A DNA stretch of 64,000 nucleotides from Labilithrix sp. GTDB taxonomy: Bacteria > Myxococcota_A > Polyangia > Polyangiales > Polyangiaceae. Positions 17,560-60,996 of this stretch are shown here, in pieces. The notes below the pieces were generated by a model. It ran no database searches, was not told the origin of the DNA, and saw only the letters and a list, made by a program, of their open reading frames with translations. Location: NCBI GenBank assembly GCA_019637155.1, contig JAHBWE010000017.1, positions 64,001-128,000 of the forward strand. The letters are read 5' to 3'. Numbering within the stretch: position 1 is the first letter of the stretch; every line of letters starts with the position of its first letter. The position numbers were made by a program, and so were the translations under genes.

Positions 17560-18549
17560 ATGGCGTTCGCACAGCTCCTCCGCAAGCACTTCTGGGTCGT
17601 CCCGCTGCCGCTCCTGGCGACGGCGGCGCTCCTCAACGCGCAGGCGGTGACCCAGCTCGTGGGGGCGACGATGGCGGTCGACGAGAAGGACCTCGCGCGC
17701 GCCCCCAACGTGTCGCTCCGCGGCGCGGGCGCGGCCGGGTCCGCGTCGGCGCGCAGCACGGACGGCTCGCCGATCATCCATCGCAACGCGTTCGATCACG
17801 TCGCGGGCCCGCTCGACACGAAGCCGGTAGAGGAGAGCGGCGACGGCGAGCCCACCGGACCGATCGACACGAGCGATCCGTGGAGCGCGCCGGCGTGCGA
17901 AGGCGTCGTCGTGAAGGCGATCGCGGCGAGCGACGACGAGGCGTGGTCGTTCGCGTCGTTCGCGGGCGAAGGCGGCAAGCCGCAGCTCGCGCGTCGCGGC
18001 AGCGACGTCGGCGGCAAGACGGTGCACTTCATCGGCTGGGACCGCGTGTGGCTCACGAGCAGCGGCCAGCTCTGCCAGGCCTCGCTCTTCGACGCCAAGA
18101 AGGCGCCGCCCCCCGCCGCGCCGGCCCCCGCGCCCGCGGCGTCGTCCTCCGCCGCCCCGTCCACCGGCGCCCGCCGAGGAGCGCCGCCGCTCTCCGCCGA
18201 CATGAAGAGCGGCATCAAGCAGGTGAGCCCGACCGAGTTCCAGATCGATCGCGGCATCCTCGACAAGATCCTGGAGAACCAGGCCGAGCTCATGCGTCAG
18301 GCGCGCGTCGTGCCGGTGCAGGAGAACGGCAAGGTCGTCGGCGTCCGGCTGAACGGCATCAAGTCCGACGCCCTCCTCGGCGTGCTCGGGATGCAGAACG
18401 GCGACACGCTGAAGACGATCAACGGCTTCGACATGGGCAGCCCCGAGAAGGCGCTCGAGGCATACGCGCGCCTCCGCACCGCCGACAAGCTCACGATCTC
18501 GCTCTCGCGCGGCGGCAAGGACATGAACATCGACTACGCGATCAAGTAG
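17560..18549 (+). CDS. PDZ-domain protein, GspC-like (type II secretion protein C family)
   Basis: N-terminal hydrophobic anchor, Ala/Pro-rich linker, and a C-terminal PDZ domain (VPVQENGKVVGVRLNGIKSDALLGVLGMQNGDTLKTINGFDM). Confidence 0.6.
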   Translation: MAFAQLLRKHFWVVPLPLLATAALLNAQAVTQLVGATMAVDEKDLARAPNVSLRGAGAAGSASARSTDGSPIIHRNAFDHVAGPLDTKPVEESGDGEPTGPIDTSDPWSAPACEGVVVKAIAASDDEAWSFASFAGEGGKPQLARRGSDVGGKTVHFIGWDRVWLTSSGQLCQASLFDAKKAPPPAAPAPAPAASSSAAPSTGARRGAPPLSADMKSGIKQVSPTEFQIDRGILDKILENQAELMRQARVVPVQENGKVVGVRLNGIKSDALLGVLGMQNGDTLKTINGFDMGSPEKALEAYARLRTADKLTISLSRGGKDMNIDYAIK

Positions 18550-18595: not shown

Positions 18596-19114
18596 ATGGC
18601 CGTCTCCGCGCTCGACCGCGTCCTCGAACGACGCCCGGAGCTCCTCGCGTTTCTGCGCCGCCGCGTGCGCCCCGGCACCGACGTGGAGGATGTCCTCCAG
18701 CACGCCCTCCTGACCGCGACGGCGAAGGTCGCGCAGCTCCGCGACGAAGAGCGCGCGGTGGCGTGGTTCTACCGCATCCTCCGCCGCCGCCTCGCCGACG
18801 AGCGCGCCCGCGCCCGCGCGTGGGACGAGAAGCGCCCGCTGCTCGAAGCCGCTGAGGACGTCGCGCCGGAGGACCCCGCGCTCTGCGCGTGCAGCCTCGG
18901 CCTCCTCGACACGCTCGCCCCCGCGTACGCGGAGGTGGTCCGCCGCGTCGACCTCGGCGACGAGCCCATCGCCGACGTCGCGGCCGCGCTCGGGACGACG
19001 ACGAACAACGTCACCGTGCGCCTCCACCGCGCGCGGAAGAGCCTGCGCGACCGCCTCGCCTCGACGTGCGGGACGACCTCGCTCGGCTCGTGCCTCGAGT
19101 GCGATTGTGTGTAA
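18596..19114 (+). CDS. ECF (sigma-70 group 4) sigma factor with a Cys-rich C-terminal tail, CorE-like
   Basis: Region 2 motif VAWFYRILRRR. Region 4 motif TTNNVTVRLHRARKSLRDRL. A CAC lies in the linker, and the C-terminal extension CGTTSLGSCLECDCV carries 5 Cys. Confidence 0.8.
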   Translation: MAVSALDRVLERRPELLAFLRRRVRPGTDVEDVLQHALLTATAKVAQLRDEERAVAWFYRILRRRLADERARARAWDEKRPLLEAAEDVAPEDPALCACSLGLLDTLAPAYAEVVRRVDLGDEPIADVAAALGTTTNNVTVRLHRARKSLRDRLASTCGTTSLGSCLECDCV

Positions 19115-19123
19115 TCGCGTGTA

Positions 19124-19810
19124 ATGTTCCGCGCGTTTCCTCTGTCTGCCCCGCCGATGAGGAACGTCTTTCACTTCTGCGCCGCCGCGCTCGTGCTCGC
19201 GGCGTGCGCGTCTTCCCCGCCGCCGGCCGGGACCGCGGGCACGCCCCACGGCAAGCTGTCGGAGCTCTCGCGCGTCGAGGGCGACATCGTGCTCTGCGAG
19301 CACAAGGTGCCGGCGCAGGTCTGCACGAAGCACCACCCCGAGCTCGTCGCGCAATTCCAGCGCGCGGGCGACTGGTGCAAGCCGCACGGCGTGCCAGAGT
19401 CGCAGTGCCTCGAGTGCCACCCCGACCTCACCTTCGAGCCGCTCCCGAAGCTGCCCGAGGGCGCCGACGTCGCGTGGCTCTCGAAGGAAGGCGAGGACGT
19501 GCCCGACCTCGACGCGCACGCCGCTCCCGGCAAGGTCACCGTCTTCGAGTTCTACGCGGAGTGGTGCGCGGTCTGCCGCAAGGTCGACGGCCACGTCTAC
19601 AAGCGGCTCGCCGGCGGCGAGACGGAGCTCGCGTACCGCAAGCTCAACATCGTGGAGTGGGAGTCCGCGCTCGGGCAGCGCTACGTGAAGGACGTCCCGA
19701 CGTTGCCGCTCATCATCGTGTACGGACCGAAGGGCAAGCGCTTCCGCGCGCTCTACGGCGCCGACCTCGCGCTCATCGACCGCACGATCGCCGAAGCCCG
19801 CGCGCAATGA
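19124..19810 (+). CDS. thioredoxin-like lipoprotein with an N-terminal Cys/His metal-binding region
   Basis: Lipoprotein signal MRNVFHFCAAALVLAAC. Two CxxxxxxxCxxHHP-like motifs (LCEHKVPAQVCTKHHPEL; WCKPHGVPESQCLECHPDL). The thioredoxin active site is FYAEWCAVCRK. Confidence 0.7.
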   Translation: MFRAFPLSAPPMRNVFHFCAAALVLAACASSPPPAGTAGTPHGKLSELSRVEGDIVLCEHKVPAQVCTKHHPELVAQFQRAGDWCKPHGVPESQCLECHPDLTFEPLPKLPEGADVAWLSKEGEDVPDLDAHAAPGKVTVFEFYAEWCAVCRKVDGHVYKRLAGGETELAYRKLNIVEWESALGQRYVKDVPTLPLIIVYGPKGKRFRALYGADLALIDRTIAEARAQ

Positions 19811-20886
19811 AGCGCCTGACAGCGCTCGCGCTCGTCGCCTTTCTCGGGGCCTCGCTCGCCGAGCGCACCGCCGCCGCGTGCGCGGGGTGCAGCAATCCCA
19901 ATTTGCCGACCGCGCGCACCGCGATTGCCTATTTGCATCCGGGCGAGCTCTCGCTCGCATTCAACCTCACCGCGACGACGATGCACGTCACGCACTCGGA
20001 GCACTGTCCCGACATCGGCCCGATATGCAATCAGCGCGACGAGCCCGCGCAGATTCACGATCAGCGCTTCTACGTCGCCGAGCTCCGCCCCATTCTCGCA
20101 TTGGGCATTACCGATCGCTTCGCGCTCGAGGCGCAGGTGCCGCTCCGCGTCGTGAGCACCACGATCACGTTCCGCCGGCTCGACGGCACCGCGTTCGCGC
20201 CGGACTACCAGAACATCCATCACCGCGACGAGACGCTCTACGGCCTCGGCGATCCGTGGCTCTTCGGCCGGATGACGGGCGCGGTCGGCGCGCTCGCGGT
20301 CACGGCGCGCGCGGGGGTCGCGCTGCCGGTCGGGAGCACGGAGGAGGACCCCTTCGCGCGCGGACGCGCCGGCCTCGAGCACCAGCACATCCAGTTCGGC
20401 ACCGGCACGTTCGCCCCGGTCTTCGCGCTCGACGCCGGTCGTTCGTTCGGGAGCGTGCGCGCCGGCGGCTACGCGCAGGCGATGCTCTTCGTCTACGAGA
20501 ACGCCCGGCGCTACCTCGCGGGCAACCGCTACACGGCGGGCGTCGCCGGCGACGTCGAGGTCGTGAAGCGGCTCCGCGTCGGCCTCGGCGCGGACGTGCT
20601 GAACGAGCAGCCCGAGCGGTGGCGCCGCGTCATCCAGCAAGACGGCAACGTCGGCCGCACCGACGTGCTCGCCGGCGGCATGGTGAGCTACGCCCTCGAC
20701 ACGCTCGTGCTCTCCGCTTCGATCCGCGTGCCGGTCTACCAGCACTTCATCGATCCGGGTCACACCCACGACCAGGACCCGGGCCAGCTCACCTACCCCG
20801 CGATCGTGAACCTCGCGCTCGCGACGACGTTCGGCGGACCGAAGGTGGATCCACGTCCGAAGAGCGGGATCCTCCCGCCGCCCTGA
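19807..20886 (+). CDS. putative outer-membrane beta-barrel protein (MetA-pathway/transporter-like)
   Basis: The ATG overlaps the upstream stop as ATGA. Signal peptide MKRLTALALVAFLGASLA. The pattern alternates hydrophobic and polar residues with many Gly and aromatics, and a near-terminal LALATTF resembles a beta-barrel C-terminal strand. Confidence 0.5.
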   Translation: MKRLTALALVAFLGASLAERTAAACAGCSNPNLPTARTAIAYLHPGELSLAFNLTATTMHVTHSEHCPDIGPICNQRDEPAQIHDQRFYVAELRPILALGITDRFALEAQVPLRVVSTTITFRRLDGTAFAPDYQNIHHRDETLYGLGDPWLFGRMTGAVGALAVTARAGVALPVGSTEEDPFARGRAGLEHQHIQFGTGTFAPVFALDAGRSFGSVRAGGYAQAMLFVYENARRYLAGNRYTAGVAGDVEVVKRLRVGLGADVLNEQPERWRRVIQQDGNVGRTDVLAGGMVSYALDTLVLSASIRVPVYQHFIDPGHTHDQDPGQLTYPAIVNLALATTFGGPKVDPRPKSGILPPP

Positions 20887-21473
20887 CCTCCCGCCAGGAT
20901 CTGGAGCCCGAGGAGGACGAGGACGATCGGCAGGACGACGCGCCCGTAGCGCCGGACCTTGCTCCTCACCGCTTGGTTGTCGACGAGGCGGAACGCGAGC
21001 GCGCACCAGAGCGCGGTCATCACCGCGAAGACGGGGACGTAGACGAAGAGGTGCCGTCGCTCGACCGCGAAGAGCGGGACGTACACGCCGAGGTTGTCGC
21101 CGCCGTTCGCGATCGTCACCGCCGCGACGGCGAGGACCTGCGACGCACCGGCGAGCCGCTCCTTCGGCGGCCCGCCCTCGTCCACGCCGCGCGCGCGAAG
21201 GACCTCGACGCCTTTGTACAGCCCGAGCGCGAGCGGAACGATCCCGACGAGCGAGATCCATCGCGCGGGGACCGCGACGGCGAAGGCGGCCACCGCCACG
21301 CTCGCGCCGACGAGGACGGCGATCCCGAGGACCTGCCCGCCGACGACCGCGCGCGGCCGCAGCGTCGGATCCGCGAAGAGGACCGTGAGGAGCACGACGT
21401 CGTCGACGTTAGTGCTCGCGAAGACGACGACACCTTTCACGAACGTCGCCAGGAGCTCGCTTGAAGCGATCAC
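20793..21473 (-). CDS. cadD: cadmium-resistance transporter CadD family protein
   Basis: GTG at 21473 with AAGAGG 8 nt upstream. Family motifs TNVDDVVLLTVLFA and TIANGGDNLGVYVPLFA. About 6 transmembrane segments. Confidence 0.75.
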   Translation of the reverse strand: MIASSELLATFVKGVVVFASTNVDDVVLLTVLFADPTLRPRAVVGGQVLGIAVLVGASVAVAAFAVAVPARWISLVGIVPLALGLYKGVEVLRARGVDEGGPPKERLAGASQVLAVAAVTIANGGDNLGVYVPLFAVERRHLFVYVPVFAVMTALWCALAFRLVDNQAVRSKVRRYGRVVLPIVLVLLGLQILAGGQGGGRIPLFGRGSTFGPPNVVASARFTIAG

Positions 21474-21557: not shown

Positions 21558-21818
21558 ATGCTCATGCCGCGCCTCCTTGCCCTCGTCGCCGTCGCCCTCG
21601 CCGCCGGGTGCGCGGCGCCGCGCACGGCCGAGGGGGTCACGCCGATCATCCACGTGAGCCCGGGCGTCGCGGGGCGACTCGCGCTGATGGATCGGTACCG
21701 CCTCCACGACGAGGAGCGGAAGCTCATGATGCAGCGGCCGCGCGTGTGGGTCGAAGAGGTCGAGGAGGAAGAAGAGGAGGAGCCCGTCGGCGTCAACGAC
21801 GCGGACGCTGCACGATGA
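21558..21818 (+). CDS. small lipoprotein, hypothetical
   Basis: Signal peptide with lipobox MLMPRLLALVAVALAAGCAAP. Acidic C-terminus (EEVEEEEEEE). Confidence 0.35.
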   Translation: MLMPRLLALVAVALAAGCAAPRTAEGVTPIIHVSPGVAGRLALMDRYRLHDEERKLMMQRPRVWVEEVEEEEEEEPVGVNDADAAR

Positions 21819-24451: not shown

Positions 24452-24453
24452 GT

Positions 24454-25016
24454 CTCTTCATGGTCGGGGGCTCTGCCCCCGACACCCCCGCCCCGCGACC
24501 ACGGCCCTCTCTTCATGGTCGGGGGCTCTGCCCCCGACACCCCCGCCCCGCGACCACGGCCCTCGCGCTTTCGCGCTCGGGTTGCTTCGCAACCGCTGGG
24601 GCGGCCGCGGTCGCGGGGCCCCCGCTTCCCCCGCTGCGTCGCGCACGGACGTCGCTGCGCTCGGGGCGCTTCGCAACCGCTGGGGCGGCCGCGGTCGCGG
24701 GGCCCCCGCTTTCCCCGCTGCGTCGCGCCCGACCCTCGCACTCACGCGAAGGCCCCAGAAGCGATCTCGCCGCCGCATCGCGCACGGCCGTCACGCTCGC
24801 CTGCGCATGCGAGCGCCAAATCCGGCCCCATGAGCGCGGCGATTGGCAGCGGCCCCCAGCAGCGGGCCCGCTCGCATGGCCCTCACGCTCACCCGCGGCG
24901 CGCGCGAGGGGCCCCAGAAGCGGCCGCGCAAGCGGGCGCGCAGCGCCCCGAGCGCGAAGCGCGAGGGTCGTGTCTGGGGTGGGGGTGTCGGGGGCGAAGC
25001 CCCCGACGTTGAGTAA
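24454..25016. mobile_element. foldback/MITE-like non-coding element with roughly 42-bp terminal inverted repeats (left terminal repeat duplicated in tandem)
   Basis: The left end is tctcttcatggtcgggggctctgcccccgacacccccgccccgcgaccacggccc, present twice in tandem. The right end ggggtgggggtgtcgggggcgaagcccccgacgttgagtaa is its inverted complement. The 9-bp palindrome gtcgggggc-NNN-gcccccgac sits in every copy. The interior holds two further 60-bp direct repeats (gcttcgcaaccgctggggcggccgcggtcgcggggccccc). There is no protein-like ORF. Confidence 0.5.
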
Positions 25017-60027: not shown

Positions 60028-60996
60028 TTATTCGGGCAGCGTCAGCGGCAGGCCGAAGAGGGGGAACAGCGTCTCGACGTCGAGGAAGGAGGTCCAGCCG
60101 GTGATGGAGGATTCGTCGAGCTCGAGGACGGTGAGGGAGAAGGCCTTGAAGCCGCCGTCGGGGTTCACGCGGTAATGCGCGAAGGCGGGGTGGCCGCAGG
60201 CGCCGGTCGTGCGGACGACCTTCGAGCCGCGGCAGCCGCTGCCGCGGCCGAGGAGCCACGCGCGGACCGGCGCGCGGCCCTGGAGCCAGAGCGAATACGG
60301 CGGCATGCAGAAGCGCGCGTCGTCGCGGAGGAGCGACACGAGGCCGTCGACGTCGTAGGTCGCGAACGCGGCGACGTACCGATCGACGAGCTCCTCCTGC
60401 TTCGCGGTGAGCGGCGTGTGCGCCGCGACGTCCTTCGTCGCGAGCGTCGCGCGCGCGCGCTGGAGGCCGCTGTTCACCGCCGCCACCGTCATCTCGAGCG
60501 CGTCCGCCACCTCGGCCGCGGACCAGCCGAGCACCTCCGTGAGCAAGAGCGCCGCGCGCTGGCGCGGAGGCAGGTGCTGAAGCGCGGCGACGAACGCGAG
60601 GCGGATGCTCTCCTTCAGCACCGCCGCCTCGGAGGGATCGGCGTCGGAGGGGATCGCCTTCGCGTCGGGGATCGGCTCGAGCCAGTGCGTGCGCTCGTAC
60701 GCGACGAGCTCGTCCTCCGTCGTCCCCGCCGGGCCGTCGATCGGCCGCACACGCGACTTCTTCGCCGCCGCGAGCGCGTCGAGGCACACGTTGGTCGCGA
60801 TGCGGTAGAGCCACGTCTTCACCGCCGCGCGCTCCTCGAAGCGATCGAGGCTCTTCCACGCGCGCACCATCGTCTCTTGCACCGCGTCGTCGGCCTCGGC
60901 CGCGGAGCCGAGCATGCGGTAGCAGTGACCGGTGAGCGCGACCCGATGCTCCTCGAGCCGCGTCGCAGCAGAAGCAGCACCAGCAGCAGCAGCCAT
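60028..60996 (-). CDS. ECF sigma factor with C-terminal SnoaL/NTF2-like extension (ECF41/SigJ-like)
   Basis: Region 2 [12 protein letters not shown]. Linker motif [12 protein letters not shown], resembling the conserved YVGPWLPEP motif of the ECF41 group. Region 4 [27 protein letters not shown]. An extra domain of about 130 aa follows region 4. Confidence 0.8.

Follow-up and report, generated by a model that had tools for sequence, protein, structure and literature searches.

A 64-kb window of the Labilithrix sp. genome (the whole stretch of DNA analyzed, positions 64,001 to 128,000 of contig JAHBWE010000017.1 in assembly GCA_019637155.1; ~71% G+C) carries a gene for an extracytoplasmic function (ECF) sigma factor that, judged by its sequence, is CorE-like (group ECF44, now ECF238). 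Just past the stop codon of this gene lie a candidate promoter and two genes that we name lipoT and ompL, which encode a thioredoxin-fold lipoprotein and an outer-membrane beta-barrel. The explanation that we consider probable is that a one-component CorE-type sigma factor, acting on a promoter at the 3′ end of its own gene, drives lipoT-ompL as a metal-handling pair. The sigma family itself is known; what is new is the unit, in which such a sigma factor is joined to a promoter at the stop codon of its gene and to an uncharacterized lipoprotein-barrel cassette. Five kinds of observation bear on this explanation: the family features of the sigma factor, the specificity of the promoter motif, synteny across related loci (labeled L001 to L092), the coupling of lipoT to ompL, and the folds of their products. 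The unit has the following features.

18596..19114, + strand: ECF sigma factor gene, 172 aa (Pfam, homologs, and a third-codon-position G+C content [GC3] of 0.94)
18629..18817, + strand: sigma-2 domain, residues 12-74, with D-V-E-D in region 2.2 (Pfam PF04542, Sigma70_r2, 1e-08)
18884..18892, + strand: linker C97-A-C99 (CxC), read from the DNA
18902..19045, + strand: sigma-4.2 region, residues 103-150 (Pfam PF08281, Sigma70_r4_2, 9.6e-10)
19046..19111, + strand: Cys-rich C-terminal extension, residues 151-172, C158-x7-C166-x2-C169-x-C171 (sequence and homologs)
19112-19114, + strand: sigma stop codon (sequence)
19120..19146, + strand: promoter-like motif TGTAATGTTCCGCGCGTTTCCTCTGTC (TGTAA-N18-YGTC), 6 nt past the sigma stop and 10 nt before ATG 19157
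19157..19810, + strand: lipoT, 217 aa, or 228 aa if read from ATG 19124 (Pfam Thioredoxin, 4.7e-07; AF2 model)
19295-19339, + strand: lipoT Cys/His module 1, C-E-H-x6-C-x2-H-H-P (sequence alignment)
19376-19423, + strand: lipoT Cys/His module 2, C-x2-H-x6-C-x2-C-H-P (sequence alignment)
19562..19576, + strand: lipoT thioredoxin active site W-C-A-V-C (sequence; C148 and C151 invariant)
19807..20886, + strand: ompL, 12-strand outer-membrane beta-barrel, 359 aa (fold comparison)

A CorE-like sigma factor with a four-cysteine tail

The sigma factor matches Sigma70_r2 and Sigma70_r4_2 and no other Pfam domain, and by the Pfam borders its last 22 residues form an extension past sigma-4. An earlier examination of the sequence alone (the sequence-only reading) had described a Cys-rich C terminus ending in STCGTTSLGSCLECDCV and a CAC in the linker between regions 2 and 4; both are present in the open reading frame (ORF) at 18596-19114 (+), with residues 97-99 falling between the Pfam matches to sigma-2 and sigma-4.2. 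All six cysteines of the protein lie within the linker CxC and the tail motif. There are 1772 homologs at E ≤ 0.001, and we scored Cys motifs in the best 120 of these. The linker CxC and a terminal C..C-x2-C-x-C occur in 120/120, and the Cys patterns are therefore family-wide and beyond chance; the offset from linker CxC to terminal CxC is 72 residues in most of these homologs and 70-76 in the remainder. The tail spacing C-x7-C-x2-C-x-C, exactly as in the window sigma, occurs in 43/120 (~55 if variants with additional distal Cys are included), and the CorE spacing C-x2-C-x4-C-x2-C-x-C occurs exactly in 42/120 (~50 if variants are included). The four-Cys tail is one of two main subtypes of the Cys-rich domain (CRD) among the best 120 homologs.

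Members of ECF44 are recognized by a sigma-2/sigma-4.2 core, a linker in which CxC is strictly conserved, and a Cys-rich domain that takes up the C-terminal 21-50 residues, and they have no anti-sigma factor (PMC3107203, PMC4937300, PMC6851896). The sequence hallmarks are all present in the window sigma and kept in its homologs, in agreement with the CorE-type architecture proposed earlier. ECF44 has since been merged into ECF238 (PMC7826278, PMC8999054), a group that includes SigZ and CorE2 and is described by a short, ~20-residue extension with conserved Cys and no anti-sigma factor (PMC7826278). The best NCBIfam models for the window sigma are those of SigZ, the Bacillus subtilis member of ECF238 (4.6e-19), yet all scores are below cutoff and far below the equivalog cutoffs. 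Some 85% of ECF238 members lack a linker CxC (PMC8999054); the window sigma, unlike these, has one and would therefore belong to the former-ECF44 part of the group. A PDB sequence search with the sigma factor returned SigH and SigL only, with no solved structure of a CorE-type family member.

No Pfam or NCBIfam anti-sigma domain was found in the flanking proteins (GspC, lipoT, ompL, CadD, and an unknown 191-aa protein), and the gene that follows the sigma gene varies among homologous loci, being lipoT, DUF3703, a glycine-zipper protein gene, an unknown, or a gene in the opposite orientation. As far as linked genes are concerned, the earlier claim that there is no anti-sigma partner therefore stands. 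The sequence-only reading had named beforehand two outcomes that would speak against it, an anti-sigma partner and C-terminal cysteines not conserved in orthologs; both were checked, and we found no such partner and a conserved set of cysteines.

We compared the cysteines with those of CorE (MXAN_3426 of Myxococcus xanthus, the founder of ECF44) and CorE2 through published residue numbers. Counted from C120, CorE residues C181, C189, C192, and C194 lie at +61, +69, +72, and +74, and the four tail cysteines of the window sigma lie at identical offsets from C97 (PMC3107203); the linker pair C120/C122 of CorE likewise matches C97/C99. Both proteins consist of sigma-2 and sigma-4.2 only, and both are encoded next to envelope or periplasmic genes with no linked anti-sigma gene (PMC3107203). 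They differ in that the window sigma lacks CorE C184 (T161 instead) and CorE C206, and in the length of the Cys-rich tail (22 residues, versus 38 in CorE). CorE has P1B ATPases and a multicopper oxidase as its targets and in part regulates its own gene, whereas the sole evident target of the window sigma is lipoT-ompL.

CorE2 (MXAN_5263, Cd/Zn-responsive, ECF238s15) has the same architecture as the window sigma, and in both cases the targets lie directly downstream. Its tail contains six cysteines (169, 173, 174, 178, 181, and 183), versus four in the window. CorE2 C174, which sets Cd/Zn specificity, is replaced by Ser (S162) in the window sigma, and the C173 position is occupied by Thr (T161) (PMC4937300); the same position as C174 is A185 in CorE. 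The CorE2 operon also encodes a lipoprotein, but upstream of the sigma gene, whereas lipoT is downstream (PMC4937300). The targets of CorE2, a CDF pump and a glyoxal-oxidase/Kelch protein, are both missing from the window locus, and Pfam and NCBIfam detect no member of the CorE/CorE2 target families (P1B ATPase, multicopper oxidase, CDF pump, glyoxal oxidase) among the sigma neighbors. The sequence comparison suggests that the window sigma belongs to the same group as CorE and CorE2 and is an ortholog of neither. In both Myxococcus proteins, which respond to metals, the CxC and the CRD are essential, and Cys mutation inactivates rather than activates (PMC4937300); both turn on detoxification genes under metal excess (PMC3107203, PMC4937300). 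Sigma factors of the OrbS/PvdS iron-starvation type also sense metal directly through their own C-terminal cysteines, as we propose for the window sigma; they fall in another ECF group, lack the linker CxC, and are reported to be inhibited by metal binding (PMC9023288).

A promoter-like motif at the sigma stop codon

The motif TGTAA-N18-YGTC has a single match in the window, compared with 0.11 expected, and this match sits within the 42 bp that separate the sigma stop from ATG 19157. A scan of both strands of 1.16 Mb of collected loci plus the window gave 12 matches, all of them beside CorE-like sigma genes and on the same strand, with none elsewhere. They are located 78-287 bp upstream of the sigma start or at the sigma stop codon and cover 10 of the 12 distinct sigma-bearing loci; among four loci gathered after the motif had been defined, three carry it. 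In L001 and L006, a shared sequence (TGTAAGGATC...CCCCGTC) upstream of a small ORF that precedes the sigma gene resembles the window sequence TGTAATGTTCCGCGCGTTTCCTCTGTC. An A-rich -35 element combined with a CGTC-type -10 element is the typical layout of an ECF promoter, and we regard TGTAATGTTCCGCGCGTTTCCTCTGTC at 19120-19146 as a candidate ECF-type promoter. When one mismatch is allowed, the window contains five matches (4.8 expected), which gives no evidence of further targets. The motif has no copy upstream of the window sigma gene itself, and on this ground the sigma factor is probably expressed independently of metal, as is corE2, whose expression is not metal-autoregulated (PMC4937300).

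The arrangement around the stop codon recurs with a small variation. In L086 and L010, the sigma stop codon falls within the TGTAA of the motif. The window has a 10-bp tandem duplication (TGTAATCGCG / TGTAATGTTC, 19110-19129) that spans this position, its first copy holding the stop codon and its second forming the -35-like element, and because of this duplication the motif lies 6 nt past the stop; the L086 ortholog has a single copy. The distance from the -10 element to the ATG is 10 nt in both the window and L086, and the leader would therefore be very short or absent.

The same region bears on where lipoT begins. The sequence-only reading had placed an ATGA overlap between the sigma gene and the lipoprotein gene, and this we could not confirm: the sigma stop is at 19112-19114, and the first ATG, at 19124, is in the same frame and 9 nt farther on, within the -35 element. 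The overlap of that kind is instead at 19807-19810, where the lipoT stop meets the ompL start. The probable start of lipoT is ATG 19157, since the resulting 217 aa is the modal length among homologs and matches the L086 ortholog.

Cys-rich and metal-related genes at sister loci

At seven loci (L001, L006, and L088-L092), the motif is followed by a ribosome-binding site, a small Cys-rich ORF, and then the sigma gene. The small ORFs between motif and sigma gene are placed as follows.

L001:5207-5383: small Cys-rich ORF
L006:5109-5285: small Cys-rich ORF
L088:4864-5043: small Cys-rich ORF
L089:1637-: small Cys-rich ORF
L090, from about 3995: small Cys-rich ORF
L091, from about 3840: small Cys-rich ORF
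L092, from about 3830: small Cys-rich ORF

Translations from L001, L006, L088, and L089 have 55-59 residues (58-59 in the three that are free-standing) and 13-14 Cys, with a conserved GECCCGxxCxCG...CGCP. These products have no Pfam match and, from their sequences, look like an undescribed bacterial metallothionein-like family. At L089:1637-2353, the metallothionein-like ORF and the sigma gene form one continuous reading frame, with no stop codon separating them (238 aa), which is either a natural metallothionein-sigma fusion or a case of two overlapping starts.

Other genes also adjoin sigma genes of this clade. A DUF3703 gene lies downstream of the motif, between the sigma gene and lipoT, at L010:6513-6908 and at about 5950-6330 in L006; the L010 copy was called by Pfam (2e-34) and the L006 copy by sequence similarity only. 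At L092:3004-8567, the genes flanking a sigma gene with the motif and the Cys-rich ORF are those of a MerR regulator and an OEP/CzcB/ACR_tran (RND efflux) operon. The metallothionein-like, DUF3703, MerR, and czc-like neighbors support a metal-related regulon for the sigma clade. Metal sensing by the window sigma would follow by analogy, through homology to CorE and CorE2 and through the metallothionein-like and czc-like neighbors at these sister loci.

The lipoT-ompL cassette

The description of the gene after the sigma factor as a lipoprotein is borne out by a lipobox, L-A-A-C, whose Cys is kept in 111/111 lipoT sequences. There are 598 lipoT homologs, with identities of 60-89% among the best 120. 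In an alignment of 121 sequences (numbered on the 228-aa form), residues C58, H60, C67, C85, H88, C95, C98, C148, and C151 are invariant, and H70 (120/121), H71 (120/121), and H99 (119/121) nearly so. The two CxxxxxxxCxxHHP motifs reported earlier exist as two Cys/His motifs, though their true forms are C-x8-C-x2-H-H-P (C58 and C67) and C-x9-C-x2-C-H-P (C85, C95, and C98). The thioredoxin site WCAVC, W-C148-A-V-C151, was read correctly: Pfam Thioredoxin (PF00085) scores 30.2 bits, versus a cutoff of 23.5. The AF2 model (pLDDT 84.5) gives the C-terminal half a thioredoxin fold, and Foldseek returned 258 PDB matches at E ≤ 0.001, topped by thioredoxins at a probability of 1.00.

Two known architectures come close to that of lipoT. 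Foldseek aligned 136 columns with Yersinia Trx2, of the TrxC type, in which, as in lipoT, a Cys-rich domain of metal type precedes the CxxC thioredoxin fold; TrxC/Trx2 proteins are cytoplasmic and carry two CxxC pairs, whereas lipoT is lipid anchored, mixes Cys and His in its modules, and has an obligate partner in the outer membrane. The lipoT module, in the form C-x-[EG]-H-x6-C-x2-[CH]-x-P, recurs at the N termini of CusB/HlyD_D23 membrane-fusion proteins (E values down to 3e-37). Representative proteins of that kind (P0361-P0380) each contain 2-21 matched stretches of C-x-[EG]-H-G-x-P-E-S-x-C-x2-C-x-P, and the 21 stretches occur in one 2907-aa protein. These adaptors share the modules with lipoT, which lacks the adaptor domains and instead joins the modules to a lipid anchor and a thioredoxin fold. 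The Cys/His module is matched by no Pfam model and, as far as Pfam shows, is undescribed.

The gene after lipoT, called OMP-like in the sequence-only reading, proved by fold to encode a 12-strand outer-membrane barrel. An AxA signal-peptidase site is followed by an invariant C25-x-G-C28-S-N-P-N-L, and the long loops contain invariant IHHRxET, HQH-IQFGTG, and QQDGNVGRTD. Even in Bacteroidota relatives, IHHRxET, HQH-IQFGTG, and the N-terminal CxxC are kept, whereas the C67/C74 pair is not. All 292 ompL homologs are annotated as hypothetical and none has a Pfam domain; searches of Pfam and NCBIfam (E ≤ 0.01) and a PDB sequence search gave no family or match for ompL. The fold is similar to those of the COG4313 outer-membrane channel (PDB 4rl8) and FapF (5o65), at sequence identities of 11-12%. 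Neither of these is known to have the His/Asp/Cys-rich invariant loops or the N-terminal CxxC of ompL, which, unlike them, always has a thioredoxin-fold partner. ompL is related to COG4313/MetA-pathway-type channels by fold only and is not a member of that group.

lipoT and ompL are adjacent in 69/69 related loci in which both were detected, and overlap by 4 nt wherever gene calls exist (the window and L001-L005); L041 alone has a full-length lipoT without ompL despite downstream room. The cassette loci are mostly from Myxococcota, and shorter, thioredoxin-domain-only versions of lipoT are paired with ompL in Bacteroidota and Thermoanaerobaculia. A sigma gene adjoins the cassette only in the window, L086, L001 (with L002 and L007), L006, and L010. 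The order sigma-lipoT-ompL is thus found in five distinct genomes at sigma identities of 50-67%, with L086 the closest (67%). lipoT-ompL is an independent cassette, mostly found without the sigma factor. At L003:803-4616, it lies beside two ArsR-type regulators, an arsenate-reductase-type low-molecular-weight phosphatase, a glyoxalase-fold protein, and a chromate transporter. This setting and the recurrence of the lipoT modules in CusB/HlyD_D23 adaptors both speak for a link to metals.

All-against-all clustering of neighboring ORFs, polluted by antisense ORFs of this high-GC DNA, showed clade-restricted synteny only, in Archangium-type loci with PadR-like, proline-dehydrogenase-like, and glutathione-reductase-like genes. 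GC3-based calls in 18 diverse loci gave no common cassette partner beyond an ORF of ~100 aa in three of them. This ORF directly precedes lipoT, in the same orientation, at loci without the sigma gene (L022:6625-6927, L037:6568-6873, and L058:6553-6855). Its product combines clustered cysteines (CxPxCxxCxCC) with a C terminus conserved as E-I-x-[DH]-V-P-K, and the cassette may thus have a third member.

Flanking genes and other features of the window

The unit is bordered by two further genes.

17560-18549, + strand: GspC (NCBIfam GspC_delta, 2e-108)
20793..21473, - strand: convergent CadD-family transporter with a GTG start at 21473 (Pfam Cad, PF03596, 9.1e-23)

Codon-position G+C content supports the GspC, sigma, lipoT, ompL, and CadD frames (GC3 of 0.91-0.96, second-position G+C [GC2] of ~0.5); long antisense ORFs lack this signature of high GC3 and mid GC2.

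A convergent CadD transporter had been counted as part of the module. The gene does belong to the CadD family (PF03596, 81.6 bits versus a cutoff of 26.2), although the narrower NCBIfam subfamily model TIGR00779 stays below its cutoff (96 bits versus 181). Its membership in the module did not hold up: CadD is absent from all 69 related loci, GspC is never adjacent to the cassette there, and no motif lies near cadD even with one mismatch. We treat CadD as an independent neighbor of sigma-lipoT-ompL. The 3′ ends of cadD and ompL overlap by 94 bp (20793-20886), where both C-terminal tails are nonconserved, and no terminator-like site was found in this overlap.

The GspC (type II secretion) gene is 46 bp upstream of the sigma gene, and we saw no second gsp gene in the region from 16 to 25 kb; either an orphan gene or a piece of a split gsp cluster is conceivable. 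An 86-aa ORF (21558-21818, +), which separates cadD from the gene that follows, has a lipoprotein signal, L-A-A-G-C, a poly-Glu tract, and no family match; a GC3 of 0.89 points to a coding sequence. Farther along, the intergenic region 24453-24739 contains two tandem duplications, a perfect one of 55 nt and one of 84 nt (92% identical), each with G+C-rich hairpins, and inverted copies related to these are at 24920-25012. The window also has a second ECF-type sigma gene at 60028-60996 (-), whose 322-aa product has a long C-terminal extension and a sigma profile match of 7e-14 and is unrelated to the CorE type.

Proposed mechanism and alternatives

We propose that C97, C99, C158, C166, C169, and C171 of the sigma factor would bind a cytoplasmic metal ion, as homology to CorE and CorE2 suggests, and that the metal-bound form would become transcription competent with no anti-sigma factor involved. 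Its cognate promoter would be the TGTAA-N18-YGTC motif at 19120-19146, directly past its own stop codon. RNA polymerase carrying the sigma factor would start at ~19150 and make a short-leader or leaderless lipoT-ompL transcript, on which both genes, driven from 19120-19146, would be translationally coupled. The two proteins would act at the inner face of the outer membrane, where they would bind metal-bound thiols, pass them outward, or service their redox state. Most likely, the pair handles metal ions or metal-damaged thiols between periplasm and outer membrane, and outer-membrane export or sequestration is the leading possibility for its function. We infer metal binding, the identity of the metal, the transcription start, and the function of the cassette.

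Several points weigh against this proposal. The link of the sigma factor to metal is drawn by analogy, the metal transport or binding of the pair would have to be supposed, and a thioredoxin fold with CxxC suggests redox chemistry equally well. The window tail has T161 at the position of CorE C184, which was invariant in the 21 sequences of the 2011 study (PMC3107203), and the coordination chemistry of a tail without it may differ. The metallothionein-like ORF and DUF3703 are absent from the window, where tblastn gave low-complexity noise only. The window sequence itself contributed to the definition of the motif, and in a terminator scan the window site overlaps a weak terminator-like hairpin (19116-19135), in which a T-rich tract comes after a stem of 6 bp. 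The transcription start would fall only ~2-6 nt before the ATG. Finally, ~60 of the 69 cassette loci have no adjacent sigma gene or motif and have heterogeneous neighbors, and the function of the cassette is therefore not tied to a CorE-type sigma factor.

Redox chemistry leads to the first of four alternatives, in which the sigma factor senses thiol or oxidative (disulfide) stress, its cysteines holding structural zinc or disulfides as in zinc-containing anti-sigma (ZAS) domains, and lipoT-ompL serves envelope thiol repair. The direct target lipoT has a thioredoxin fold with CxxC and ompL an N-terminal CxxC, the Archangium-type loci (10-11 examined) have a glutathione-reductase-like gene just downstream of the pair, reviews liken the CxC and CRD to ZAS domains (PMC6851896), and CorE discriminates copper redox states (PMC3107203). 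We nevertheless think thiol sensing unlikely: the same promoter drives metallothionein-like ORFs in the seven sister loci, the L092 sigma gene is adjoined by czc-like efflux genes and a MerR gene, the Cys/His modules of lipoT are common to heavy-metal-type adaptors, and CorE and CorE2, which respond to metals, are inactivated by Cys mutations (PMC4937300).

If metal is the signal, the pair could work in the opposite direction and import a scarce metal or metal chelate, with the sigma factor adjusting uptake. The barrel folds closest to ompL, those of the COG4313 channel and of FadL-like proteins, belong to uptake channels, the His clusters in its conserved loops are suggestive of a specific binding site, and PcoB-type barrels have been discussed as copper porins. 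Yet CorE and CorE2 activate detoxification genes under metal excess (PMC3107203, PMC4937300), the metallothionein-like coregulation and the adjacent czc-like efflux genes likewise point to excess and not scarcity, and no inner-membrane importer is linked to the pair, all of which leaves import with a slim chance of being correct.

lipoT might instead be a regulatory partner of the sigma factor, either an anti-sigma factor or a periplasmic cosensor, like MXAN_5262 with CorE2. It carries Cys/His motifs and lies directly downstream of the sigma gene in five distinct genomes, and there is a precedent in that deleting the lipoprotein MXAN_5262 delays the CorE2 response (PMC4937300). This role is nonetheless very improbable: with its lipobox Cys kept in 111/111 sequences, lipoT has no cytoplasmic domain to hold the sigma factor, it has no anti-sigma Pfam domain, it occurs without an adjacent sigma gene in ~60 loci and is always coupled to ompL, and its position downstream of the promoter makes it a target; work on MXAN_5262 also showed that this protein is not an anti-sigma factor (PMC4937300). 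The anti-sigma form of the idea we reject, as lipoT is exported, lipid anchored, and without an anti-sigma domain.

Least credible of all is incidental adjacency, with 19116-19146 serving as the sigma-gene terminator and lipoT-ompL being transcribed from elsewhere, for although a stem and T-rich tract are present and the cassette usually occurs without the sigma factor, terminator-like matches in the region are at chance level (2 versus 1.4 expected), the motif is present in eight other loci (upstream of the sigma operons in L001, L006, and L088-L092 and past the sigma stop in L010) where it cannot be a sigma terminator, and the order sigma-lipoT-ompL recurs in five genomes at 50-67% sigma identity.

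Implications

Only two CorE-type sigma factors, both from one organism, have been studied, and their promoters and regulons are poorly defined. The window and its sister loci supply a sharply defined candidate promoter, TGTAA-N18-YGTC, together with a natural four-Cys sensor tail that lacks a position (CorE C184) previously thought invariant. As a minimal unit of one regulator and one operon, the locus could be put to a direct test or serve as a metal biosensor.

A broader and more tentative picture is also possible, in which lipoT-ompL would be an unrecognized outer-membrane system for metal export or sequestration, widespread in Myxococcota and with distant relatives in Bacteroidota and Acidobacteriota, where lipid-anchored lipoT would load or redox-service a His-lined barrel. 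In a subclade of Polyangia, the cassette would have been captured as the near-leaderless direct target of a four-Cys CorE-type sigma factor, from a promoter that adjoins or overlaps the stop codon of the sigma gene, and a second target would be a new class of small metallothionein-like proteins. For the ompL barrel family, which has no Pfam model, metal-linked regulation is a first functional lead, and the same lead extends to the Cys/His module that lipoT has in common with the adaptors of heavy-metal pumps.

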